A DNA stretch of 64,000 bases from Solirubrobacteraceae bacterium (GTDB lineage Bacteria; Actinomycetota; Thermoleophilia; Solirubrobacterales; Solirubrobacteraceae), in contig DATMQX010000002.1 in the NCBI GenBank assembly GCA_035567055.1, positions 425 to 64,424 on the forward strand, in the 5' to 3' direction. The position numbers and the translations under genes were made by a program. The notes below the pieces were generated by a model that ran no database searches, was not told the origin of the DNA, and worked only from the letters and a program-made list of their open reading frames with translations. This document shows, in pieces, positions 4,643-25,601 of the stretch. Every line of letters begins with the position of its first letter. Position 1 is the stretch's first letter.

Positions 4643-4694
4643 CGGTGCTGCCGTTGACAAGGGCCGGCCTGGGCCGGCCCGCCTCCGACGGAGT
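4643..4694 (+). repeat. ~52-bp dispersed intergenic repeat, copy 1
   Basis: CGGTGCTGCCGTTGACAAGGGCCGGCCTGGGCCGGCCCGCCTCCGACGGAGT, nearly identical to 5814-5864. Confidence 0.85.
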
Positions 4695-4761
4695 CAAGCC
4701 CAGACGCAACGCCGCGTACGGGACGCGGCCATCCTGCTCAAGGTGCCGCGCCGGTCCGAGT

Positions 4762-5394
4762 TCAGCGGCATAATCCCTTGACCCTCTTGAACAGCCGGCT
4801 CGCGCCGGCGAGCGGCGCTCGCCTTGATTCTTCCTGCGTGACCGGAGCTTCGAAGTGGTTCCAGACGACGAAGAAGCAACGGCCGCTCGTAAAGAGGACG
4901 TCGTCGGTACGGCCAGATGCCCCGGGGAAGCTCACCCCTATAGAACCGGGGACGGAGGGCGCGGTAAAGCGTTCACGGCGACCCCCTTGCGATACGAGAA
5001 ACCTGAGGTTCGAAGCTAGCTCCCCTCGCGCCCCACGCGACGAGCTGTACACCGACGCGTCCGACTCGGCGTATGCACGGGCGTATTCGAACCACTCAAG
5101 GACGCCTAGACGAAGCCCCTCATGGTTCAAACGGTTCACATCGGGCACCACTTCGGCTGGCTTGTCTTTGAAGAACTCCTTGGCAATGCGTCGTGCCGAC
5201 GTCGTGGATGCGATGCCATGCTCGGCGAGTGCGAAGCCAGGCAGCTCGCTCGGTCGCACGACAAGCTTCGAAGGTGGGATCTGCCTCGCAGAGACATCCG
5301 TCGCCACCCCGGCGGTGCACACCAGAACTGTCAAACCAATAAGGACCGCCCGCACAGCGGCCAGTCTACGTTGAGTGCGATTCGTTGTGGGCAT
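4762..5394 (-). CDS. Secreted hypothetical protein
   Basis: Signal-peptide-like N-terminus (RRLAAVRAVLIGLTVLVCTAGVA); start taken at ATG 5394. Confidence 0.6.
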   Translation of the reverse strand: MPTTNRTQRRLAAVRAVLIGLTVLVCTAGVATDVSARQIPPSKLVVRPSELPGFALAEHGIASTTSARRIAKEFFKDKPAEVVPDVNRLNHEGLRLGVLEWFEYARAYAESDASVYSSSRGARGELASNLRFLVSQGGRRERFTAPSVPGSIGVSFPGASGRTDDVLFTSGRCFFVVWNHFEAPVTQEESRRAPLAGASRLFKRVKGLCR

Positions 5395-5422
5395 GACGGG
5401 GCGAACCCTGGCGCTTGACGCC

Positions 5423-5444
5423 CATGCGAACATATGTTCGCATG
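5423..5444. promoter_or_regulatory. LexA/SOS box (Gram-positive GAAC-N4-GTTC type) in a perfect 22-bp palindrome
   Basis: CATGCGAACATATGTTCGCATG, just downstream of TTGACG (5415-5420) and overlapping ATG 5442. Confidence 0.7.
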
Positions 5445-5765
5445 ACTGCTCGCCCGTGGAAGCCGGCCGTGGAGCTCGAGGGTGCGCTGGAGCGCGGCGA
5501 GCTCGAGTACTCGATCACGCTGGCCGCGGAAGTCTCCGAAGATCAGCGCCGCCCGCTCGACCTGGAGATGGCCCTGCGGTTTCTGCCGGTGGTCGCCGAG
5601 CGGCGCCCGGGCGAGTTCGACGCGTGGGCGCTGCGCTGGCTCACCCGCTGGATCACCGAGACACCAGGCGCGACGGTCGGCCGTGCCGCGGAGATCGCGT
5701 GCTCCCTCGCCGACGCGCAGCGTGAGCCGATCGCGCTCGAGTCCGTGCGGAAGACTCTGAGCTAG
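5442..5765 (+). CDS. Conserved hypothetical helical protein, likely SOS-regulated
   Basis: 107-aa ORF (MTARPWKPAVELEGALERGELEY...FDAWALRWLTRW) starting inside the SOS box. Confidence 0.6.
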   Translation: MTARPWKPAVELEGALERGELEYSITLAAEVSEDQRRPLDLEMALRFLPVVAERRPGEFDAWALRWLTRWITETPGATVGRAAEIACSLADAQREPIALESVRKTLS

Positions 5766-5813
5766 GTACGCTCCAACGGAACAAGACCCAGCGAGGCGAC
5801 CATGGCTGCCCCG

Positions 5814-5864
5814 CGGTGCTGCGGTTGACGAGAGCCGGCCTGGGCGGCCCGCCTCCGACGGAGT
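5814..5864 (+). repeat. ~52-bp dispersed intergenic repeat, copy 2
   Basis: CGGTGCTGCGGTTGACGAGAGCCGGCCTGGGCGGCCCGCCTCCGACGGAGT, matching 4643-4694. Confidence 0.85.
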
Positions 5865-5969
5865 GACACTGTGAGGCAGTGGACTGATCCGACCTGGGAC
5901 GGCTCGGCAGAATGCTCACCGTTGAGCCTCGCCGTTCATGGCACTCGGCGCCCGCGCCGATGCAAGAAC

Positions 5970-6248
5970 ATGCGCTTGAAGCGAAGCTCATCGAACGAGA
6001 GCCCCGAGCGCGAGGCGATCGGCCCGCCGGTCGCTGAGCGGGAGATCCTCTGCGGCGACGAGGACTCGGCTCGGGCGCAGGCGGAACGCCAACAGCAGCT
6101 CGAGCAGGCGGCGGAGGCGGAGTGGATCTACCTGCGCAACAAGGATGGGCGCTGGGTTGCTCGTAGAACCGCGCGCGACCCGGAGCCGTCGACGCCGAGC
6201 CGCAAAGAGCGGATCTTTAACGCGATCGCCGACATCTTCTTCTCGTAG
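5970..6248 (+). CDS. Small hypothetical protein
   Basis: ORF ending 'RIFNAIADIFFS'; followed by a GC hairpin at about 6267-6290. Confidence 0.4.
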   Translation: MRLKRSSSNESPEREAIGPPVAEREILCGDEDSARAQAERQQQLEQAAEAEWIYLRNKDGRWVARRTARDPEPSTPSRKERIFNAIADIFFS

Positions 6249-6442
6249 AGCCGAATGAAGCTGCCCTCGCGGACGCCTGCGTCCGCGAGCCCAACCATCG
6301 CCGTCGCGCCAGCTTCCCCGCTTTTCCTTGACCGCCCGCCGGCCCTCCTGTAGACGGTCAGGTAAACCCCTATAGAGCTATTGGCCCCGGCGACAGCGGT
6401 AACTGCCCCGGGGCCGTGGCACGGAAAGGAATCACCCTTCCC

Positions 6443-6703
6443 ATGCATGCAGAAAGTAGCGAGAGCGAGCGCCTTGAGTCGCCGAGCGACGTCGAACGGG
6501 CGGTGCTGATGGAGCTCCTCGGTGGCGAACACGGCGTGTGGACCCAGGGCGAGCTCGAACGCGCGGTGGCTGGCCCCCGCGGGTTCCCTGGACAGGTCGA
6601 TGACGCAATCAACCGCCTCTACGACACCGGCCTGGTTCACGTGTTCGGCGAGTTCGTGACCCCGACGAGGGCCGCCCGGCAGATGGACCAGCTCGCCCTG
6701 TAG
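6443..6703 (+). CDS. Small winged-helix protein
   Basis: GGAAAGGA RBS; 'VERAVLMELL...WTQGELERAV...VDDAINRLYDTGLVHVFGEFVTPT' is wHTH-like. Confidence 0.6.
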   Translation: MHAESSESERLESPSDVERAVLMELLGGEHGVWTQGELERAVAGPRGFPGQVDDAINRLYDTGLVHVFGEFVTPTRAARQMDQLAL

Positions 6704-9820: not shown

Positions 9821-10516
9821 GTGCAGACCGAGCGGGATGCGGAGATCGTGGATTGGGTTGGCCGGCTCGGTGCCGCGGGCGCCGAGCACGTCATGGCCCG
9901 GTTCGGGATGGGTCGCAGCTGGGCGTACGCCCGCCTCAGCCGCCTGGTCGAGGACGGTCTGCTCGAGCAGACGCAGCTGCTTCACCGCCAGCCAGGGCTG
10001 TATGTCGCGACCGCGGAAGGGTTGCGCTGGCGTGGATTGCAGCGCCTCGGTGTCCACCGGCTGAGCGTCGGCGGGTTCGAGCACGCCCGCCAGGTCGCCA
10101 CCGCGGCCGTAGCGCTGCACGAGGGCCTGGTGCATTGGACGCTGTTGAGCGAGCGCGAGCTGCGCGTCGTCGAGAGCGAGTGCGGCGAGCTCGTCGCCTC
10201 CTCTCGCCTCGGCGAGCTGCCCGGCGGACGACCCGCGCTCCACCGCCCCGATCTCGCGCTCATCTCGCCCGAACACCGAGTTCTCGCGGTCGAGGTCGAG
10301 CTGTCGATCAAGGCGCCAAGGCGGTTGCAGGCGATCTGCCGCGGGTACGCCCGCGCCCGCCACATACGCCACGCCTACTACCTCGCCAACGGCGCCGCCG
10401 GCCGAGCCGTCACCCGGGCCGTCGAGGTGACCCGCGCGCGGGACCGCATCGCCGTCCTCGCGCTCCACGACGTCGGCGCGCTCGTCGCATTGGAGCTGGG
10501 CCGTGCAGGCGCTTGA
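9821..10516 (+). CDS. Replication-relaxation (Replic_Relax) family protein
   Basis: GGAGG RBS before GTG 9821; N-terminal HTH 'RDAEIVDWVGRLG...AYARLSRLVEDGLL', then 'HRPDLAL' and 'LAVEVELSIK' nuclease-like motifs. Confidence 0.8.
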   Translation: MQTERDAEIVDWVGRLGAAGAEHVMARFGMGRSWAYARLSRLVEDGLLEQTQLLHRQPGLYVATAEGLRWRGLQRLGVHRLSVGGFEHARQVATAAVALHEGLVHWTLLSERELRVVESECGELVASSRLGELPGGRPALHRPDLALISPEHRVLAVEVELSIKAPRRLQAICRGYARARHIRHAYYLANGAAGRAVTRAVEVTRARDRIAVLALHDVGALVALELGRAGA

Positions 10517-12086
10517 GCACGCCCTCAAGACCCTCATGGTGCTCACCGGCATCGTGGTCGGCATTGGCGTCGCGGCCGCGGCGCTGCTCCGCATAGGCAG
10601 CCTGAGGTGGACCTGGGCGCTCCCCGGCCTCGTCTTGGCGGCGGTCGTGTTCGACGTTGACCGCCTCGCCGGCCTGGTGATCGGCTCCGCGTCGCTGCTG
10701 GCGTGCGTGCTCGGTGCGAGCTGGCACGGGAGCGACCTCGGCCACGGCGCGGACCTCGCCGACGCGGCCCGCGCCCGGCTCGGAATGCTCAGACTGTTCC
10801 GCCGTCATCTGCATCGGCGACGAACGGAACGCGAGGGCTGGATCAGCGACGGCCGGCTCACCGTCGGCCGCGACGACCAGGGCCTGCCGGTGTCGATACC
10901 TGTCGGGTACGAGTCGGGTTCGCACACGCTGGTGCTGGGTGCGACGGGTTCGGGGAAGACGGTCAGCGAGGCATGGATCGCCTGCCGCCTCATCGAGGAG
11001 GGCCATGGTGCGATCGTGGTCGACCCGAAGGGGGACCGGATGCTCCACCAGGAGCTCCAGGCCGCCGCCGCGCGTCGGGGCGCGCGCTTTCTGGAGTGGA
11101 CCCCGGAGGGGCCGCTCGCGTACAACCCTTATGCGCAAGGTTCCGATACGGAGATCGCGGACAAGGCGCTGTCGGGGGAGACGTTCACCGAGCCGCACTA
11201 CCTCCGCCAGGCGCAGCGCTACCTCGGCCACGCGATCCGCGTGATGCACGCCGCCGGTGTCCCGGTCACCCCTGTTTCGTTGATGAAACACCTGGACCCG
11301 GGTGAGCTTGAGTTCACCGCACGACAGCTGCCCGATGAGGGGGCATCTGTCGTGCTCGCGTACCTGGACTCCCTCACCGACCGTCAACGGCGTGACCTCG
11401 CGGGTGTCCGTGACCGGCTGTCGATCCTGGCCGAGTCCGACGCGAGTGAGTGGCTCGACCCGCGTCAGGCGAACGTTGCGCTCGATATCCAGCAGGCGGT
11501 CCAGGAGCGGGCGGTCGTGTACTTCCGGCTCGACTCCGACCGACGGCCGCTGCTGGCCGGCATGCTGGCAGCCGCGATCGTCGGGGATCTGATCGCGTTG
11601 GTCGCACGGCTCCAGGCGAACCCAATCCCGACAGTCGTCGTGATCGACGAGTTCTCGGCCGTAGCGGCCGACCAGGTCGCCCGCCTGTTCGGCCGCGCCC
11701 GCTCCGCCGGTGTGAGCCTGATCCTGGGCACCCAGGAGCTCGCCGACCTCAAGACCGCCGCCGACGGGCTACGCGAGCAGACGCTGGGGAACGTCGCGAC
11801 CGTCATTGCTCACCGGCAGAACGTGCCCGAGTCCGCCGAGCTGATCGCCGCGACGGCCGGCACCAAACCCGTATGGGTCACAACCGAGCAAACCGAAGAC
11901 GGATTCCTGGCCGGCGGCCCGAGCGGCCGCGGTAGCCGCCGCCGCGGCTACGAGTACGAGATCCACCCATCCCAGCTGAAGCGGCTGCGAACGGGGTTCG
12001 CAGCCGTGATCACGCCCGGGAGCGGCCAGCGCCCCGTGATCGCGCGGATGTGCCATCCGAGCGAGGTGCCCCCGCGACGACGCTAG
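10503..12086 (+). CDS. Type IV coupling protein, VirD4/TraD-like (TraM-recognition domain)
   Basis: N-terminal TM helices, Walker A GATGSGKT, 'VDPKGD', Walker B 'VVIDEF', 'RARSAGVSLILGTQ'. Confidence 0.85.
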   Translation: MQALEHALKTLMVLTGIVVGIGVAAAALLRIGSLRWTWALPGLVLAAVVFDVDRLAGLVIGSASLLACVLGASWHGSDLGHGADLADAARARLGMLRLFRRHLHRRRTEREGWISDGRLTVGRDDQGLPVSIPVGYESGSHTLVLGATGSGKTVSEAWIACRLIEEGHGAIVVDPKGDRMLHQELQAAAARRGARFLEWTPEGPLAYNPYAQGSDTEIADKALSGETFTEPHYLRQAQRYLGHAIRVMHAAGVPVTPVSLMKHLDPGELEFTARQLPDEGASVVLAYLDSLTDRQRRDLAGVRDRLSILAESDASEWLDPRQANVALDIQQAVQERAVVYFRLDSDRRPLLAGMLAAAIVGDLIALVARLQANPIPTVVVIDEFSAVAADQVARLFGRARSAGVSLILGTQELADLKTAADGLREQTLGNVATVIAHRQNVPESAELIAATAGTKPVWVTTEQTEDGFLAGGPSGRGSRRRGYEYEIHPSQLKRLRTGFAAVITPGSGQRPVIARMCHPSEVPPRRR

Positions 12087-13364: not shown

Positions 13365-13447
13365 CGTGTGAGGGTCAACCTCCCATCAACCCGAGCAAGA
13401 CCTAACCGGGGGCCAGGCGGTCCACTGCGCAATGGGTGAGCTGGTCT

Positions 13448-13564
13448 CGCAGGCTCGCCCGCGAGCCTGCGGCGAGCGGAGCGAAAAAGGGGAGGGGTCT
13501 CTTGCTGGGTTCGATCGACACGCGGGTGGAGGTGTCATGTCGAATCAACCGCAAGGAGGCCCTG
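13448..13564 (+). promoter_or_regulatory. Structured leader upstream of ssb (candidate single-stranded promoter / ssi-like hairpins)
   Basis: Perfect 11-bp stem CGCAGGCTCGC-CC-GCGAGCCTGCG (13448-13471), a second stem TCGACAC...GTGTCATGTCGA, and an AAGGAGG RBS. Confidence 0.4.
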
Positions 13565-13927
13565 ATGCCCAGTAGCGCCCCCAACGTAAACACAGTCACC
13601 TTGGTCGGCCAGCTCACCAGCGCCCCGGTCCTACGAGCAATGTCGGACGGACGCAACGTTTGCGACCTCCGATTGGCGGTCAACGACCAGCGCGACCAGC
13701 CGCCCATGTTCATCGACGTCGCCACGTTCGGCCCCGCCGCCGACGCGTGCGCCGAGTACCTCACCAAGGGACGCGCAGTCGCGGTCACCGGCCGCCTCGT
13801 CTACCGGGAGTGGGAGAAGGATGGCGTCAAACGCTCCAAGCACCAGGTCGTGGGTCGCGTCACCTTCGGTGGCCGCGACGCCGCCGGCGACGACGAAGTC
13901 ACCGGCGGCGGAGAGGCGAAGCGATGA
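13565..13927 (+). CDS. ssb: Short single-stranded DNA-binding protein lacking the acidic C-terminal tip
   Basis: 'NVNTVTLVGQLTSAP..CDLRLAVN..FIDVATFG..A..CAEYLTKGRAVAVTGRL..REWE' OB fold; AAGGAGG RBS. Confidence 0.9.
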   Translation: MPSSAPNVNTVTLVGQLTSAPVLRAMSDGRNVCDLRLAVNDQRDQPPMFIDVATFGPAADACAEYLTKGRAVAVTGRLVYREWEKDGVKRSKHQVVGRVTFGGRDAAGDDEVTGGGEAKR

Positions 13928-16908: not shown

Positions 16909-18306
16909 ATGCCCCCAGGCGTCCTCCTTGCGGACGGCGTACCGTTTCCTCCCGGCCGTGATCTAGGACCAATGGCCATGCCGGACAGCCTCGGATTTTC
17001 CCGTCGCGCTGACCGACTCGCTCACACGTTTCCCTCGGGGGGGGTACCGGGTGGCGGAGTGCACCTTCGGCATCGTTCACCGGACCCCCCAGGTCGTCGA
17101 CTCGATGATGCTCGCGATCGCAAACCGTGGGGCAGGCTGAGCAAAGGAGGCGGCGCCAAGGACGACGCCGCAACGGACGCATCTGCTGCGGTCGACGAAA
17201 GCGTCTTCTCGCAGGCGCACGGAACTTTCATCGCAGTCGAGTACGAGGCGATACCCGGTGAAGGCGAGGACGCCGAGCCGCTGCGGTTATTGGGCCCGAG
17301 CGACGTGGTCGTACTAGGCGTGTTCGACGGACTGGGTGGCGCAGGGGGAGCCAGATACGAGATCGAAGGCATGGAGCGAAAGGGAGCATATATCGCATCT
17401 AGGCTGGCGCGAGGGATCACCCTGCAGGAGGCCGAGCGCAGACTCGTGGCACCCGTAACTGATCTGGCATCTGCACTCAACATGGGAACACAGTTTGCCG
17501 CCGGGCTCGCCGAGCGGTTGCAGCTCGAGTTTCACCGCGTCGCGAGTTCGCTCGCGGGGGAGCCGAGCAGCCTCCGCAGCTCGATGGTTCGAGTGCTGCC
17601 GACGACCGCAGCACTCGTGATCGTCTGGCCGAGTCGCGATGGACGCGGGGTCGGTCCCGAGTCTCGTCTCGGTTGTGCGGTATGGGCTGGAGACTCGCGT
17701 ATTTACGTCCTCTCGCCCTCGCGGGGACTTGTCCAGGTCTCGTCGGACGACGCTCGCGTCAAGTCGGACGCGCTGGCAAGCCTAGAATCAGATCCGCCAA
17801 TCGATAACTGCATCAGCGCGAGTCGGGACTTTCGACTCAACACTTTTGCATGGGAGCTCAACGAGCCGAGTATCGTGTTCGCGGCGACAGACGGGTGCTT
17901 CGGTTACCTGCCGACCCCGGCACACTTCGAGATCGCCTTGTTGGACGCAATGAGTGGGGCGGCGACGTCGGAGGACTGGCAGCGTGGCCTAGCGGCCAGC
18001 ATCTCTTCGGTCGCACGAGACGACGCGAGTCTAGTCGCGGCGACGCTGGGGTTTGAGGACTTCAACGCACTGCGAGCGGCGTTTGAGCCCCGTCGGGCGT
18101 ATGTACAGAAGGAGTTCGTCGAGCCGTACGCCCTGCGTCAAGACGTCCTGTTAACAGCCGACAGGGAGCTCGCAGCGCTGAAGCAACGTCGCGACGAACT
18201 AGCCGAGGCACGCAGTCAGTGCGCCAAACAGCTCTGGCAGCGATACAGACCTGGCTATGAGCAGCTAGTTGCAGCGCAACTCCGTGACCAGGAGCCAGCG
18301 CCGTGA
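16909..18306 (+). CDS. PP2C-like (PPM) protein phosphatase with C-terminal coiled coil
   Basis: 'LGVFDGLGG', 'PTT', 'WAGDSRIY', 'FAATDGCFGY', 'RDDASL'. The real start is probably downstream of 16909. Confidence 0.8.
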   Translation: MPPGVLLADGVPFPPGRDLGPMAMPDSLGFSRRADRLAHTFPSGGVPGGGVHLRHRSPDPPGRRLDDARDRKPWGRLSKGGGAKDDAATDASAAVDESVFSQAHGTFIAVEYEAIPGEGEDAEPLRLLGPSDVVVLGVFDGLGGAGGARYEIEGMERKGAYIASRLARGITLQEAERRLVAPVTDLASALNMGTQFAAGLAERLQLEFHRVASSLAGEPSSLRSSMVRVLPTTAALVIVWPSRDGRGVGPESRLGCAVWAGDSRIYVLSPSRGLVQVSSDDARVKSDALASLESDPPIDNCISASRDFRLNTFAWELNEPSIVFAATDGCFGYLPTPAHFEIALLDAMSGAATSEDWQRGLAASISSVARDDASLVAATLGFEDFNALRAAFEPRRAYVQKEFVEPYALRQDVLLTADRELAALKQRRDELAEARSQCAKQLWQRYRPGYEQLVAAQLRDQEPAP

Positions 18307-19346
18307 GCGAGGATGTCGGCGGGTACACGCTGAAGACCGAGTTCACGACCGCTGGGGGCGGACAGAGTCGATGGGCGTTCGCGGAGCGACGAGGGAAACA
18401 GTACTTCCTGAAGGAGTTTCTCAAGCCGAAGTACCCCATGGAGGGGTCGCCGGGGAGCGACGCTACCAAGGCCGCGCAGCGAAAGGACTGCGCTGCGTTC
18501 GAGAAGCATCACAATGCCATCCAAGCGGTACTCGGCCCGGTGAGTGCGGCCGGAGGGAACCTCGTCGTCGCGACAGACTTCTTCCGTGCGGGCTCGCGCT
18601 ACTACAAGGTTACCGAGCGTGTGGAGGTGACTGACTGGGCCGCCGCGGACGTAGCCCGTCTGCCCCTGAGCTCCCGGCTCCTGCTAATGCTGACTGTCGC
18701 ACACAGCCTCAACGTCCTACATCGGGCAGGGCTCGTGCACGGAGACGTCAAGCCACCCAACATACTGATTAAGCGACTAGAGGAGGGGCGCTTTGGCACG
18801 AAGCTGATCGACTTCGATAATGCGGTCCTTGCGGCGAAGCCGTTGCCGCCGCCGGACCAGCTTGTCGGCGACATGGCCTACTACTCGCCGGAGCTCGTGC
18901 GCTACATCAACGCGCCGAATCAGCGCGATCGGCTCACGCCGCGGTCAGACATCTTCGCACTAGGCCTTGTGTACCACGAGTGGCTAACGGGCACCAGGCC
19001 GGGCTTTGATCTCGACGCACGATACGCAGGCGTGGCGGTCGCCCGAGGAGAACGACTCCGCGTGGGCGGCATGGCTCCCCCGGAGCTACGTGACCTTCTC
19101 GTTCGTATGGTTACGGACCCGGCGTCAGACCGGCCAAGCGCCGATGAGGTGCACGCGACGCTGCGCGGCGTGCGGGCTGCCGTAGGGTCCGATCTAGACG
19201 CTGGCCATCACACCGCAGCCCCAACCGCCGCCGAGCCGTCGACCCTTCGGGGGACTCTGCTCAAGAAGGGAGGGCGATCGAAGCCGACCGGAGGGGAGGG
19301 ACAAGCGCTTCGGGGCTCGCTCGCTGAGAGGAAGGCACGTGAGTGA
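18303..19346 (+). CDS. Ser/Thr protein kinase (Hanks type, soluble)
   Basis: 'AGGGQS' loop, 'YFLKEF', 'HGDVKPPN', 'LIDFD', 'YYSPE', 'SDIFALG'; GTGA overlap with the phosphatase. Confidence 0.9.
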   Translation: MSEDVGGYTLKTEFTTAGGGQSRWAFAERRGKQYFLKEFLKPKYPMEGSPGSDATKAAQRKDCAAFEKHHNAIQAVLGPVSAAGGNLVVATDFFRAGSRYYKVTERVEVTDWAAADVARLPLSSRLLLMLTVAHSLNVLHRAGLVHGDVKPPNILIKRLEEGRFGTKLIDFDNAVLAAKPLPPPDQLVGDMAYYSPELVRYINAPNQRDRLTPRSDIFALGLVYHEWLTGTRPGFDLDARYAGVAVARGERLRVGGMAPPELRDLLVRMVTDPASDRPSADEVHATLRGVRAAVGSDLDAGHHTAAPTAAEPSTLRGTLLKKGGRSKPTGGEGQALRGSLAERKARE

Positions 19347-21125: not shown

Positions 21126-22937
21126 TCACCTCTTGCGGCGCTTCTCTCCGAGTTCCTGGCGCCCCTTGCGGTCCGCGATCAGATGTCGGTGCGTCGTAAA
21201 CAGAGTCCTAAAGGCGTCCAGCACAAGGAGTTGTGCTTGGTCCGCGGGGTGTTCCTCACTCTCTAGAAGCTGATCTCCGTGGACGAGCTTGCTGCGCGCT
21301 TGATAGACGCGGCGCGATCGGGCGGCGATCGCCGACCCCTCGGTCTCGCCCGACGCGAGGAGCGCCGCGAGCGCGCTCGACAGTCGGGTCTCAAGTTTCG
21401 GGCCTGGCCGGCCAAAGAGATTCTCCAGGGCAATCACGTAGTCGATGAGAGCGTCGTCGCTGGGTCCTCGGTCGGTCACAGCGGATAGCGTTCGGTCGAC
21501 GGCTACGCGGATACTTGCGTCATAGCCGCTGTCAAGGCGCGCAATCCATTGCTCGAGCTCGGACATGCGCTGAGAGGGGAAGGGAACTGTAGGTGGTCCG
21601 CTCGGTGCCGACACAAACCTTCCGACGTAGGGCTGGAAAGGATCGAAGACATGCGTCCACGCCAATGCCGGCATGGCGAGCTGTCCGCCCTGATTCGGGC
21701 CGGCCAATAGTGCGGCGAGGGAAATGATCTTCTCATCGACAACGAGTCTCTCTGTGCCTGCCCAGAACGTGCTTCCGGCGGATGGTGGCTTGGCACCAAC
21801 GTGAAGTCCGACGTCGCAGGTGGTTTCCAGCACCATCGTGGCTCGTGCCGCCATGGCGACATGCGGGTCGCTCCTACGAGCTGCCCGCAAACGGCCGCCT
21901 CTCGGGCCATCCAGCTCTGCGGCGTCGGGTATCTCGGCATTCCAGAATCCCACGATCGTGGGCAGTGAGCAGACACCGAGTGTGACGAGTTCGCGCATAC
22001 GGCGCAGGTTCTCTACTGCCTCGGTGATGAACGTCCCCGGACGCTTGTCTCCAAGCATCCGCACTCGTTGCTCTGCTGTGGCCAGCGCACACTCGGCGAC
22101 CCGGTACGTCCAGAGTGGGCCGTACCCCATGCCCGACGACGTGTAGAAGACGGTGCCATGAGCGAACAGCTGCGTTATAGGCTCACCTTGCAGCGCAGCC
22201 TCGAGTTGATGTACCCGTGCCCGAGAGATCAATGGTTTCGGCGGCAAGAACTGCGTGCGCTCTTCAAGAGGAAGCAGCGTGCTGGGGAAGTGGTCAATCG
22301 CGGCTCTTGCGATCGCAGTCTCCGCCGGGCTCAGCCCCTCGGGTATGGCCGGCAACTCACCGGCGGTTGCAAGCCGAAACAGGTTCGCGTGGGTGTGACC
22401 TCGATCTAGGTCCGTCCACCCGAATCGTCGCATCCGCACCAACGGTGACCCGTCAGGGAGCGCGTCAGGCTCTCCAAACGGACTGTCGCTAGCAAGCTCC
22501 TTGGCATGGGCCAAGACGTCACTTAGCGCGTGCTCGGTCTCCGTACCGAGCTGTGCGGAGCCTGTGATCCGCTCGGCAAGTGCTTCTTCGCTGACGTTGA
22601 GAACGTACGCCAGGAATGGGACGCCCAGGAGCTTGAGCGCTGTTTGGGTCTCGGCACTGGAATCACCCTCTAGATAAGTGTGTAGCGCCGCGCGGATCAC
22701 TGCCGAGGGCGTCTCGTGGTCCCGTGCAGCACGAGCGCGCAGCGCTGCCCGTAGGTCGGGGTCGACGCGAACCGATTCGATCGAGGCCGGGCCAGACCCG
22801 AGGGGCGGGCGCCCTCCCCGACGGCGCAGCGTCTCGTCGACGTCATAGCCAGCCTCAGCTTTCTTCGCGAGCTCGCGGACGAGCTCGTCGGTTATGGGGA
22901 CCCCGCTCGCGGTCTTCCCATGGGCCTCTTTCGCCAT
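21126..22937 (-). CDS. RHH/CopG-type antitoxin domain fused to an ApeA-like HEPN domain protein
   Basis: ATG 22937 (MAKEAHGKTASG...SVRVDPDLRAALRARA...SAVIRAALHTYL, RHH); C-terminal 'IDYVIALENLF...RSKLVHG' with the HEPN R-x4-H motif. Confidence 0.75.
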   Translation of the reverse strand: MAKEAHGKTASGVPITDELVRELAKKAEAGYDVDETLRRRGGRPPLGSGPASIESVRVDPDLRAALRARAARDHETPSAVIRAALHTYLEGDSSAETQTALKLLGVPFLAYVLNVSEEALAERITGSAQLGTETEHALSDVLAHAKELASDSPFGEPDALPDGSPLVRMRRFGWTDLDRGHTHANLFRLATAGELPAIPEGLSPAETAIARAAIDHFPSTLLPLEERTQFLPPKPLISRARVHQLEAALQGEPITQLFAHGTVFYTSSGMGYGPLWTYRVAECALATAEQRVRMLGDKRPGTFITEAVENLRRMRELVTLGVCSLPTIVGFWNAEIPDAAELDGPRGGRLRAARRSDPHVAMAARATMVLETTCDVGLHVGAKPPSAGSTFWAGTERLVVDEKIISLAALLAGPNQGGQLAMPALAWTHVFDPFQPYVGRFVSAPSGPPTVPFPSQRMSELEQWIARLDSGYDASIRVAVDRTLSAVTDRGPSDDALIDYVIALENLFGRPGPKLETRLSSALAALLASGETEGSAIAARSRRVYQARSKLVHGDQLLESEEHPADQAQLLVLDAFRTLFTTHRHLIADRKGRQELGEKRRKR

Positions 22938-23174
22938 CAACGGCCTCCAGGGAGAAGTCTTCGGTAGCTGCGTCGCATCTTCATCGTATGGATCGCCATC
23001 TCCGTGGAATCGTCGCAAGAGGGTTACGACCTCGAGCAACTCGCCGTTGCGCGCCGGCCCTAGGTAAAGCACTGTGTCGCCGTCTTGGTCATCAATTGTC
23101 ATCGCATTCGTTGCTGCATGGCAGATGTCCGCATCGGCAAACCCGTGCTTTCGAGCCGACGCATGGATCTCCAC
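22937..23174 (-). pseudogene. RelE/BrnT-like toxin with an internal frameshift
   Basis: 'MEIHASARKHG..DI.HA..LYLGPARNGELLEVVTL'. The expected tail DDSTEMAIHTMKMRRSYRRLLPGGR* lies in a shifted frame from about 23014, and its TGA overlaps ATG 22937 (TGATG). Confidence 0.7.
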
Positions 23175-23200
23175 CCGAGCAATTGTATAACGAAACTACA
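23175..23200 (-). promoter_or_regulatory. Leaderless -10 promoter and probable TA operator
   Basis: TACAAT lies 7 nt before GTG 23174 and overlaps the imperfect palindrome TGTAG-TTTCGTT-ATACA. Confidence 0.55.
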
Positions 23201-23274
23201 GTATGTATGACGAATGACGAAAGTCCCGACTTCGCTCGGATTTGGCTCTACCAAGCCAATTGGCGGCCCGAATC

Positions 23275-23299
23275 TTCGGCGCTAAATAGTTCCGTCCGA
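23275..23299 (+). repeat. 25-bp exact direct repeat B, copy 2
   Basis: Identical to 20683-20707; abuts the truncated 5' end of the T4CP-relaxase gene. Confidence 0.9.
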
Positions 23300-23300
23300 C

Positions 23301-25601
23301 GCGGACATTCGCGCCTCCTCGGATCGCTATCTGCGCAACGCGATCATCGCCGTGCTGGCGCACGACCGGGCCGCCACGTTGTGGGACGCCGCACGGCTGT
23401 TGTCGGTTGGAGAGGAGGGGTACTCCTATCGAAGGACTGTGGGAGCACGTGTGCGGGCGCTGCCGGAGTTCAAGGAGATCTCCCAGTTCTTCACCTCCGA
23501 GCTGGCCGCCCAGTTGGCCGACGCGCGCAGCGTGACGACGGCGAAGCTCGACGCGCCCGTGAACAAGCTTGCGCGCCTGCTCAATTCCCCGTCGATCAAG
23601 CGAGTGCTGCTGAACGACTCGTTGCGCATTGACCTCGACCGCGTGATCGCCCAAGCAGAGGTGCTCGTCGTGAAGGGCGCGCTCGGCGCCATGGGAGCCG
23701 GCAACACCTCGGTGTTGATGCAGTTGCTCGTCGGGATGATGGATGCCGCCCTGGCCCGTCAGCAGGATCTCGTCCCGGGCGACCGGCGCGTGGCGGTGGC
23801 GCTGAAGATCGACGAGGCGCCCCTGGTCTTGAACCGCAGCTTCGCTGAGACGATGGCGCTGAAGCGCTCCGCCGGCCTTGAGACCGTGGCGTGCTGGCAG
23901 ACCGACGCGCAGTGGACCGACCGCGATGTTCGCGAGCAGCTCGACGCGCTCTTCGCCCATCGCGTCTATTTCGCCACTGCCTCGGCGCGCGATGCCCGCG
24001 CAGCCGTTGCTCTGACGATGGCGGCCTTCTCCGACACCGTGCGCCCCGGAATCTCCCACCTGTCCGCCCTCGGCCAGCCGGACGTGCGCCTGCACCTGCC
24101 CAAGCACCACGCGGTCGCAAGCTGGACGACGGCGGAGGGGCGCCAGGCGCCGTTCATCGCCCGAACGATCCCGCTGCGCGTCGACCAGGAGCGCATCGCC
24201 CTGCACGCCGCCCGGCAATTCGAGCGTGGCGCACGCCACTGCACCGATCTTCGCCAGCCGCACTGGGACAGCCGTCCGCGAGCTGACTCCGCTGGGTCCC
24301 ACGACGCGGCGACCGTCGCGCCGGCGCCGCGTCGCGAGCGGGCGCCCGACCTGGAAGCGGAGAGCCTGCCCGCGATCGCGGCCGAGAGCTATCGCGAGCT
24401 CGTCGAGCTGGATGGCGCGCAGAGTGTGCGCTGGGCCCGGAAGGCGGGTGCTCCGCGCGCGCTCGAGCCTGACGAGCTCGATCTCGAGGTCCTGGCGCTC
24501 ATCGCGACGCTGAGGCATGTGCTCACGAGCCAGATCCATCGCCGGATAAACCCGGGTCGATCTATCACGACCACTCAGCGGCGTCTCAAGCGACTATCGG
24601 ACGCCGGCCTGGTCGCTCGCTTCCAGTTCCATCGCCGTGATGGAGGAGGGGTCCCGATGTGTTACGTGATCACGCCCGACGGACTCGCGGTCGTACACGC
24701 GGAACGTCAGCCTGCCGTCGAGCACGCGAGCGATGCGTCGCTGACCGACCCGCCATCCGTCGCGAAGCCGGACGCTCCGTCGCTGACCGACACGCAATCC
24801 GTGAGCCCGTCCGCACGGCGCGGTCTGCAACAGGCTCGCCGTGATGTCCACGTCGCGGGCTGGGTGCTGTCGCTCGAGCGCATCTGCGCCCCGGCACGCT
24901 GCAGGGTGCGGGGTCAGGAGGAGTCGGTTCTCTCACCACCCGCACGCTCGAGTGGCGACGGTCACAGCAGACGACTTTCACCGGCCGACCTGCGGCTGCC
25001 GGGTGGAAGGACGCCGCACGACTTCTACCGGACGGGTGCCGGCGGTGAGGCCATGGAGGTGGAGCATTTCGAGACCGTTCGACCGAACGCGATCGTAGAG
25101 CTGGAGGGGCAGCGGGAGCCCGCGGCAGCCGCCGTTGGCGAGGCTGGCACGGAGCGGCCCTCGTCGGTGGACGTGCTCGTGGAGTTCGACGATCGCCTCG
25201 TCTCGGGAGCCGCGGCGAGCAAGCTCGAGCGCTACGACCATTTCCTGACGGGGTGGGCGGCGCACACGAGAAGGTACGGACGCCGCGGCGAGGCTGTTCC
25301 CGTTCTCGTGTTCGTCTGCCGCGATCGGTCGCGCGCCCGCGAGTGCGCGAGGCGAGCCGACCCTGTGCTCAGAGCCTCGCGTGCCTATGCAGGGGAGTAT
25401 CCGTTCGATTGGGACTATCCCGCTCGGGAGTCGATCGTGTTCGCGTCCGAGCGCGACGTGCACGAGGGGCTTACCTACGCCTACGGCATTCCCCGGCTTC
25501 CGCCGGAGGTGCGCGTGTCGGCAGCCAAAGGCGACGTTCGCGCAGGTGAGGCGGTCGCAGAGCGGAGGGATCTCCCAGGCATCCTCGGAGGGCGTGGCTA
25601 G
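23301..25601 (+). pseudogene. 5'-truncated VirD4-like ATPase fused to a Replic_Relax domain
   Basis: The frame opens mid-domain after repeat B (ADIRASSDRYLRNAIIA). It has Walker B 'LKIDEAP' but no Walker A, then the relaxase HTH 'DLEVLALIATLRHVLTSQI...TQRRLKRLSDAGLV' and 'VLVEFDDR..KLERY'. Confidence 0.75.

Follow-up and report, generated by a model that had tools for sequence, protein, structure and literature searches.

Our analysis suggests that a 682-amino-acid (aa) open reading frame (ORF) in a Solirubrobacterales soil bacterium is probably the decayed copy of a two-gene module on a conjugative element, in which a toxin gene was followed by an antitoxin gene fused to a large protein that we call protein X. 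The ORF lies at 21126..23174(-) of the window, by which we mean the whole 64,000-nucleotide (nt) stretch analysed here (positions 425 to 64,424 of contig DATMQX010000002.1, assembly GCA_035567055.1, Solirubrobacteraceae bacterium), whose source is a soil metagenome. According to the ORF listing and the analyses below, it consists of three joined parts: a toxin stub, a ribbon-helix-helix (RHH) antitoxin and protein X, the last of which ends in a domain resembling the HEPN ribonucleases (RNases). Our verdict is that the locus holds an ordinary toxin pseudogene within a new antitoxin-HEPN fusion variant, and that it is the fusion, shared with relatives whose toxin genes are intact, that sets it apart.

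Translation of 22640-23260(-) in three frames shows how the parts were joined. The ORF opens with the in-frame remnant of a RelS/BrnT-like toxin (23013..23174(-), codons 1-54, GTG start), which begins VEIHASARKHGF, ends EVVTLLR, resembles a toxin N-terminus and keeps the equivalents of RelS residues K9 and H10 (ARKHG). The toxin C-terminus, DDSTEMAIHTMKMRRSYRRLLPGGR followed by a stop, lies out of frame at 22937..23014(-) and includes the counterparts of H64 and R69, both essential in RelS; read in the ORF's own frame, the same stretch is a 25-aa junk linker, the ORF running through VEIHASARKHGFADADICHAATNAMTIDDQDGDTVLYLGPARNGELLEVVTLLR and then RFHGDGDPYDEDATQLPKTSPWRPL-MAKEAHGKT.... DNA alignment with four relatives (loci L003, L005, L009 and L010) places a 2-nt deletion at 23013..23014(-), where an ancestral CGN GAC has become CG|AC, the gap sitting between 23014 and 23013 (TTGCG--ACGATTCC in the window vs TTGCGTGATGACGGC in L005). 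The TGA stop of the toxin remnant (22939..22937) shares one base (A) with the antitoxin ATG at 22937, and a GGAGG Shine-Dalgarno site 6 nt upstream of this ATG (22944..22948(-)), which is kept in L005, L009 and L010 and is weaker in L003, permits an internal start of a 603-aa protein made of antitoxin and X (RHH-X). The antitoxin part of ~92-94 aa (22656..22937(-)) comprises an N-terminal segment, GVPITDELVRELAKKAEAGYD, and the RHH core (22668..22775). It is followed by the helical N-terminal and alpha/beta middle domains of X (21597..22655(-)), as seen in an AlphaFold2 model, and by the C-terminal all-helical HEPN-like domain (21129..21596(-)), which bears the putative catalytic motif RSKLVH at 21296..21279. 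The end of the ORF reads VYQARSKLVHG, an R-x4-H motif with R at 21296..21294 and H at 21281..21279. No stop interrupts the 603-aa frame of RHH-X, and all invariant family residues are retained. A sequence-only reading of this DNA had placed the toxin C-terminus out of frame through a 2-nt loss at about 23014 and had described an RHH antitoxin with a ~500-aa extension ending in an intact R-x4-H motif; the frames and the alignment with the four relatives agree with the former, coordinates included, and an RHH_1 match and the invariance of the motif in 60 homologues with the latter.

The toxin was identified with a profile made from the four intact relatives and the read-through window toxin, which matches chain C of PDB entry 9SDC over residues 1-73 (E=3.8e-8). 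This chain is RelS (Rv2663) of M. tuberculosis, a BrnT-like member of the RelE superfamily that cleaves 16S rRNA within the anti-Shine-Dalgarno sequence and in which K9, H10, H64 and R69 are each essential for toxicity (PMC13284704). All four residues are aligned between the toxin profile and RelS. Their equivalents stand in a single frame in L003, L005, L009 and L010; in the window, those of K9 and H10 are in frame and those of H64 and R69 (AIHTMKMRR) come after the deletion, in the other frame. Because the H64 and R69 equivalents fall after the deletion, the window toxin is predicted to be dead, and the description of it as a disabled RelE/BrnT-like toxin stands. A Pfam scan gave a weak DUF4258 match to the toxin (E=0.023) and no match to BrnT or BrnA at the locus.

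The fusion of antitoxin to X is not peculiar to the window. A search with RHH-X found 16 relatives, three of which (P0002-P0004, 612-626 aa) also cover the RHH part, the others being ~510 aa long and starting at X; the RHH part is likewise covered at L005, a Solirubrobacteraceae chromosome locus. A genome scan gave four loci, all in metagenome-assembled genomes (MAGs) of Solirubrobacterales, and a metagenome scan with the close alignment added two loci only. Directly upstream of the fused gene stands an intact 78-81-aa RelS-like toxin gene in four out of four loci (L003, L005, L009 and L010). The window RHH-X is 68-73% identical to these relatives over 494 columns, with no truncation, and in a neighbour-joining tree of the 494 X-domain columns the five fused proteins form one clade, within which the window branches first and whose sister is the standalone pair P0005/P0006. 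The persistence of the fusion at ~68-73% identity beside an intact toxin indicates that it coexists with a live toxin and that X is no replacement for it. The proposal that the locus had been rewired so that a new effector took over from the toxin is thus contradicted by the relatives, which also speak against a one-off read-through as the link between RHH and HEPN-like parts; the same reading had suggested a search for such fusions beside an intact toxin, and the four Solirubrobacterales relatives are of this kind. From the tree and the alignments, the link between toxin-antitoxin and X appears to be ancestral to the fused clade and the fusion older than the toxin break, the latter appearing as a later, window-specific event.

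Two of the fused loci have neighbours of defence and mobile-element types. The one at L009 (985-4557) lies near genes for a large serine recombinase, a PycTM protein and a cytidine/MafB19-type deaminase, and the one at L003 (9548-10783) near those for an SLFN_AlbA_2 protein and a 1,009-aa protein of unknown kind.

The antitoxin itself belongs to a very common family. When ORF residues 80-173 were scanned alone, Pfam RHH_1 scored 23.5 bits against a cut-off of 20.5; the AlphaFold2 monomer model has low confidence over the RHH, as expected of an obligate dimer, and the antitoxin profile gave nothing useful against PDB sequences. An alignment search with the antitoxin part returned 3,485 homologues, the best 120 of which are nearly all standalone proteins of 92-93 aa that are 67-81% identical to the window. 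The antitoxin part is thus ordinary and its C-terminal extension the exception. In the sampled standalone antitoxin loci, the RelS-like toxin upstream is broken in two of two: at L025 (2240-2500) by a frameshift near codon 25, and at L024 (240-420) by loss of the start codon (ATA) and a deletion inside the gene; both loci have an intact promoter block and an intact 92-aa antitoxin. These lesions differ from that of the window in place and kind, which fits independent pseudogenisation. Orphan antitoxins may be common in this RHH family.

Judging from assembled contigs, we take the toxin lesion to be real in the dominant population of the window's organism. The independent Logan assembly of the one run in which the window occurs shows 0 differences and 0 gaps over 22600-23354 at a word depth of 9.7. 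The protein falls in a 90% cluster of four members, drawn from two JGI assemblies, from NCBI/Logan and from ENA (megahit); the read-through peptide is present in P0174 (682 aa) and P0176 (658 aa), and the ENA contig matches the window at 100% identity over 6,937 bp that span the shift. Since the sequence is identical in four assemblies, the deletion is no assembler artefact. Faulty sequencing or assembly, or else a minority variant in an organism that otherwise has an intact toxin and RHH-X like its relatives, would account for an out-of-frame toxin C-terminus that is free of further damage (H, R, Y and LL are kept), and the assemblies, which were compared as contigs rather than reads, may all stem from the same or related read sets. 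It is nonetheless highly improbable, given that four assemblies from different pipelines concur, that the Logan contig is without gaps at this depth, that the deletion site, CTTGCGACGATT, is not a homopolymer and that the toxins of two other loci of the antitoxin family are broken in other ways, which makes such decay look common. The contigs, which agree on the shift, thus speak against the sequencing error that the sequence-only reading had offered as its own possible refutation. Even further from likely is programmed +1 frameshifting at CGA CGA, by which one mRNA would give some restored toxin as well as the toxin-RHH-X fusion. A +1 slip at CGA|C would yield LLR-DSTEMAIH..., a toxin one residue short, and the zero-frame fusion ORF remains open. 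All four fused relatives, however, encode the toxin in a single frame, and the lesions of L024 and L025 lie elsewhere and are of other kinds. At CUC UUG CGA C no tRNA could re-pair in the +1 frame, and a slippery site is lacking; CGA accounts for 15% of Arg codons, so it is no hungry codon; and downstream of the site there is neither a stop codon nor a known stimulator. The differing lesions, the single-frame relatives, the lack of a re-pairing site and the common CGA codon all argue against a programmed frameshift, an idea that had been raised from the sequence and that we set aside.

Upstream of the toxin, seven loci have in common a 17-nt element that may serve as both promoter and operator. 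In the window it reads TTCGTTATACAATTGCT (23178..23194(-)), ends 3 nt upstream of the GTG and includes a -10-like hexamer, TACAAT (23187..23182(-)), 7 nt before this start. The block is identical in the four fused relatives (TTCGTAATACGATTGCT), where it ends 2-4 nt before the GTG in three of the four, and is carried by standalone loci as TTCGTATTACAATTCC and TTCGTACTACAATTGCT; the consensus over the seven loci is TTCGTA-N-TAC-R-ATTGCT, and the sequence upstream of the block does not align. A TANNNT hexamer within the block precedes the start by 6-8 nt, too close for a leader or a Shine-Dalgarno site to fit, and in the window no fitting start codon or Shine-Dalgarno site lies between the element and the GTG. 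The four fused relatives carry within it the palindrome TCGTA-A-TACGA (5+1+5), the arms of which are TCGTT and TACAA in the window. An initial view of these as two degrading mutations in the window operator was softened, as the TACAA arm also occurs in standalone loci and only the change to TCGTT is confined to the window. From this conserved element one may fairly infer a leaderless promoter that an RHH operator overlaps, and this fits what had been suggested from the sequence; as the consensus scans report nothing, it stays a prediction. A separate, perfect 10-bp palindrome, GCCAATTGGC, is found at 23255-23264 of the window, between the toxin-antitoxin-X operon and the divergent Replic_Relax gene described below.

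Protein X is the larger and the more obscure part of the fusion. The AlphaFold2 model of RHH-X (pLDDT 81.9, pTM 0.77) has a helical N-terminal, an alpha/beta middle and an all-helical C-terminal domain. An exhaustive profile search for X found 6,618 representative clusters at E<=1e-3, 229 of them at E<=1e-30, mostly of 510-570 aa and matched over their full length. Across 60 diverse members with ~25% identity, D..D, the E of ALENLFG, R and Y..RS..VHG are invariant or nearly so; the window X has DDALID..ALENLFG..ETRLS, with the invariant D..D, E and R, upstream of its RSKLVH motif. Pfam, NCBIfam and PADLOC gave nothing for X when run on the whole ORF, its parts, 15 close members and the 60 diverse ones, X profiles gave nothing useful against PDB sequences, and Foldseek of the full RHH-X model gave no significant match in PDB or BFVD. 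No relatives of known kind were found by sequence or fold for the N-terminal and middle domains, and ten distant X members are all labelled 'hypothetical protein' or unnamed. A full-length homologue, also annotated as hypothetical, is present on Salinivibrio megaplasmids (L022 6962-8521, 24% identity over 92% of the query), so the X family reaches the Gammaproteobacteria. In one Solirubrobacterales MAG (L007 4689-6522) the X homologue is split into two ORFs that overlap (4689..5480 and 5395..6522), either as a pseudogene or through an indel error in the MAG. Genes beside standalone X can have R-x4-H-like motifs of their own: a 203-aa protein upstream of X at L001 (5098-5709) has YARNRVHH, and a 394-aa protein downstream of X at L008 (7092-8276) has NRHGVLHG. 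These neighbours may be further HEPN-type proteins clustered with X.

We conclude from motif, model and profile comparisons that the C-terminal domain of X is HEPN-like with a probable active site. The 60-member alignment shows little or no variation at the R, S, V, H and G of RSxxVHG. The domain model is all-helical (pLDDT 90); in it the motif ends a long helix (84-105) that is followed by a loop and a further helix, a position that agrees with what is described for helix H3 of ApeA and other HEPN domains (bioRxiv 10.64898/2026.01.26.701840). The best TM-score of the domain in a Foldseek search of PDB was to the HEPN protein 2hsb (0.47/0.56, rmsd 4.4), with an E of ~4 that is not significant. 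A tblastn search with a distant X member matched proteins of Bacillus cereus plasmids whose RefSeq name is 'HEPN domain-containing protein', and the X C-terminal profile matches them over the whole domain (E=2.8e-15 and 1.3e-13, with Z set to 1e6); that name is an annotation rather than an assay result, and the proteins have no HEPN match in Pfam. The same profile finds the C-terminal domain on unrelated N-termini in P0172 and P0173. The B. cereus proteins (L017 1769-2950 and L018 1715-2884) are 390 aa long and share only the C-terminal HEPN-like domain with X; at L017 the gene adjoins those for a large helix-turn-helix regulator and a P-loop NTPase.

The domain had been likened to the HEPN nuclease of ApeA, and of this proposal the intact R-x4-H and a HEPN-like predicted fold stand, while the attribution to ApeA does not. 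Genuine ApeA genes (Ec1ApeA and Ec2ApeA) were recovered from E. coli genomes by means of the DNA given in bioRxiv 10.64898/2026.01.26.701840. Aligned to them with hhalign, the X profile gave 21 columns only, around the active site, at a probability of 3.4%; in this stretch (...RIYRTRNLIVH... in ApeA, ...LYxxRSxIVHG in X) R and H coincide with the ApeA active site. With hmmsearch, X against ApeA gave E=1.1 and 6.7, the PADLOC ApeA model had no hit in the 15 close or the 60 diverse X members, and ApeA was not among the PDB fold-search results for X. The Pfam and NCBIfam negatives are uninformative on ApeA membership, because real ApeA is also without a match there. We conclude that, by these comparisons, X is not a detectable member of the ApeA family. 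The two nevertheless resemble each other in general design: ApeA is a single-protein abortive-infection system of ~500-600 aa and, like X, usually standalone; both have a helical N-terminal domain, an alpha/beta middle and a C-terminal HEPN or HEPN-like domain; and they are similar in their active-site helix, [RK]x[IV]YxxR[NS]x[IL]xH, and in a helix-1 motif, IA[LI]E.L. ApeA is further characterised by a doughnut-shaped oligomer, activation by dinucleotides and cleavage of tRNA anticodons. They differ in that homology is undetectable beyond the 21 motif columns, with the N-terminal and middle domains unaligned, and in the build of the HEPN domain, which in ApeA is split by large insertions, with the active site on helix H3 (bioRxiv 10.64898/2026.01.26.701840), and in X is compact, with 43 residues between the helix-1 E and the catalytic R as opposed to 131 in Ec2ApeA. 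In their E. coli settings, Ec1ApeA adjoins a MobQ relaxase gene (L016 2151-3956 and 4197-4399), and the Ec2ApeA-type gene, annotated as hypothetical only, lies within a P2-like prophage tail/baseplate cluster (L015 2105-3856).

The divergent neighbour of the operon encodes a 749-aa protein with a Replic_Relax domain (23352..25601(+)), and the window also encodes a type IV coupling protein (10503..12086), an SSB (13436..13927) and a Ser/Thr protein kinase (18303-19346). Together these place the toxin-antitoxin-X locus inside an integrative or conjugative element. A Replic_Relax homologue is also found near the fused locus of L005. At three standalone loci a TrwC relaxase gene is the immediate neighbour of X (L011 8889-11567, L012 3744-6860 and L013 8759-11404), with a coupling protein (L011), an integrase (L012) or ArdC (L013) nearby; no such context was seen at other loci, the one on a Salinivibrio megaplasmid among them. 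X is thus frequently, not always, cargo of mobile elements.

Several points weigh against the picture of an antitoxin fused to a HEPN-type RNase on a conjugative element. The HEPN call rests on the motif, on a RefSeq label attached to a homologue and on a modest TM-score; no Pfam, PADLOC or PDB sequence model matches the domain, and its fold search gave no significant match. The deletion is supported at contig level, and an intact allele may exist as a minority. Scans of the intergenic region for consensus sigma-70 promoters, terminators and inverted repeats found nothing, and the operator palindrome is short, with neither the window nor the standalone loci having it in perfect form. The linker between RHH and X is much shorter in the window than in the other fused genes, and its antitoxin part shares 81% identity with standalone antitoxins against ~70% with fused ones; with linkers and antitoxin identities differing in this way, a single fusion event is not proven. 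The sample consists of four fused relatives and about seven standalone X contexts, and a relaxase adjoins X in only three of the latter.

The more serious of the remaining alternatives is that X is no RNase effector at all and serves as a sensor, a regulator or a conjugation accessory, its R-x4-H motif having a role in binding or structure and the fusion merely tying the antitoxin to X. We regard this as unlikely. It would be in line with the lack of a significant fold or profile match to characterised HEPN RNases, with the TrwC relaxase beside X in three standalone loci and with the many HEPN domains that are non-catalytic (Anantharaman 2013, PMC3710099). On the other side, the R, S, H and G of the motif, together with the helix-1 E and D..D, are invariant or nearly so at ~25% identity, as is typical of an active site, and in hhalign the motif matches the ApeA active site residue for residue; the domain recurs on unrelated N-termini (in P0172, P0173 and the Bacillus plasmid proteins), as is usual for effector domains, and no relaxase adjoins X at L001, L006-L008 or in Salinivibrio. 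It is also very unlikely, less probable still than the foregoing, that the whole ORF is a dying pseudogene locus in which RHH-X too has lost its function. The toxin of the window is dead, the left operator arm has a window-unique change and an X homologue is split in L007, all of which would suit general decay, but the RHH-X frame is fully open with every invariant family residue kept, its untruncated product is as similar to the relatives as given above, and its Shine-Dalgarno site and ATG are intact.

The architecture can be compared with that of other toxin-antitoxin systems. In BrnA the neutralising part is N-terminal and the RHH is C-terminal, as in the antitoxin here, and a C-terminal RHH lets a downstream gene fuse to it through loss of the stop codon. 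CapRel(SJ46) resembles RHH-X in joining, within a single polypeptide, an antitoxin function to a larger module with a possible role in sensing a trigger; it differs in carrying the toxin and antitoxin domains in one chain, whereas here the toxin is separate and the chain bears a second putative effector. HEPN-MNT (HepT-MntA) likewise sets a HEPN RNase in a toxin-antitoxin context, but there is no nucleotidyltransferase partner here, and the HEPN-like domain is fused to the antitoxin of another toxin instead of being neutralised by a partner. The BrnT-BrnA pair of Brucella abortus shares the toxin-first order and a RelE-fold RNase toxin (in part from PMC13284704), and differs in that BrnA has no C-terminal extension. 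The closest toxin is that of RelS-RelI (Rv2663-Rv2664) of M. tuberculosis, which is homologous, small and RelE/BrnT-like in fold, encoded first and likewise actinobacterial. Its antitoxin RelI, described as HTH-like (helix-turn-helix) and Actinomycetes-specific, is HTH/ClpC2-like (PMC13284704) and unrelated to the RHH antitoxin of our locus, which is moreover fused to a 500-aa HEPN-like protein; our locus has a conserved element with a palindrome and a putative promoter, of which none was found for relSI (PMC13284704), and its toxin is broken in the window.

In the form that we propose for the intact module, on the pattern of the four relatives, the first gene would encode a 79-aa RelS/BrnT-like RNase toxin from an apparently leaderless mRNA, and the second would be translationally coupled to it through the stop/start overlap and the GGAGG site. 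The product of the second gene would be one polypeptide with an N-terminal toxin-neutralising segment, an RHH DNA-binding domain and the three-domain protein X, the last domain of which we infer to be a HEPN-type RNase with the RSxxVHG motif. The RHH domain probably represses the operon at the short palindrome over the -10 hexamer. Since most X proteins are standalone, X is probably a self-contained sensor and effector of an abortive-infection or addiction type. The 2-nt deletion at toxin codon 54/55 of the window would have killed the toxin by removing its H64 and R69 equivalents, and has by chance joined the toxin stub in frame with RHH-X. The possible products are the 682-aa fusion and also a normal 603-aa RHH-X from the internal Shine-Dalgarno site and ATG, and the intact RHH-X is presumably the part still under selection. 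In the intact relatives, a leaderless toxin and a Shine-Dalgarno-dependent antitoxin would give a self-reinforcing switch, because RelS cuts the anti-Shine-Dalgarno sequence of 16S rRNA. A more ambitious version, which we hold to be rather doubtful, more so than an X without RNase activity, is that in these relatives RHH-X is a sensor that holds the RelS-type toxin through the antitoxin N-terminus and has a HEPN RNase of its own. A trigger perceived by the N-terminal and middle domains of X, for example a phage or the arrival or loss of a mobile element, would then both free the toxin and activate the HEPN domain; the leaderless toxin mRNA would escape the toxin-caused loss of Shine-Dalgarno-dependent translation and the switch would be irreversible.

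The broken toxin of the window is thus a case of ordinary gene decay, in an antitoxin family whose toxins are broken repeatedly while antitoxin and promoter survive, and what makes the locus interesting is the conserved antitoxin-X fusion, along with how large and how obscure family X is. RelS toxins were characterised only in 2026, with an unusual antitoxin (PMC13284704); in the soil Actinomycetota seen here, the partner of RelS-like toxins is a 92-aa RHH antitoxin of a very common family. That a clade has kept the fusion together with an intact toxin speaks for a functional connection between a type II toxin-antitoxin pair and another putative RNase effector. Protein X, whose family counts several thousand sequence clusters, carries an invariant HEPN-type active-site motif and has no Pfam, PADLOC, PDB or viral-structure match, is a candidate for a new effector of defence or addiction that acts as a single protein, and can be tested as such. 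Should the sensor model hold, the module would represent a new two-effector design for abortive infection or addiction, and X a large new family of single-protein HEPN defence effectors.

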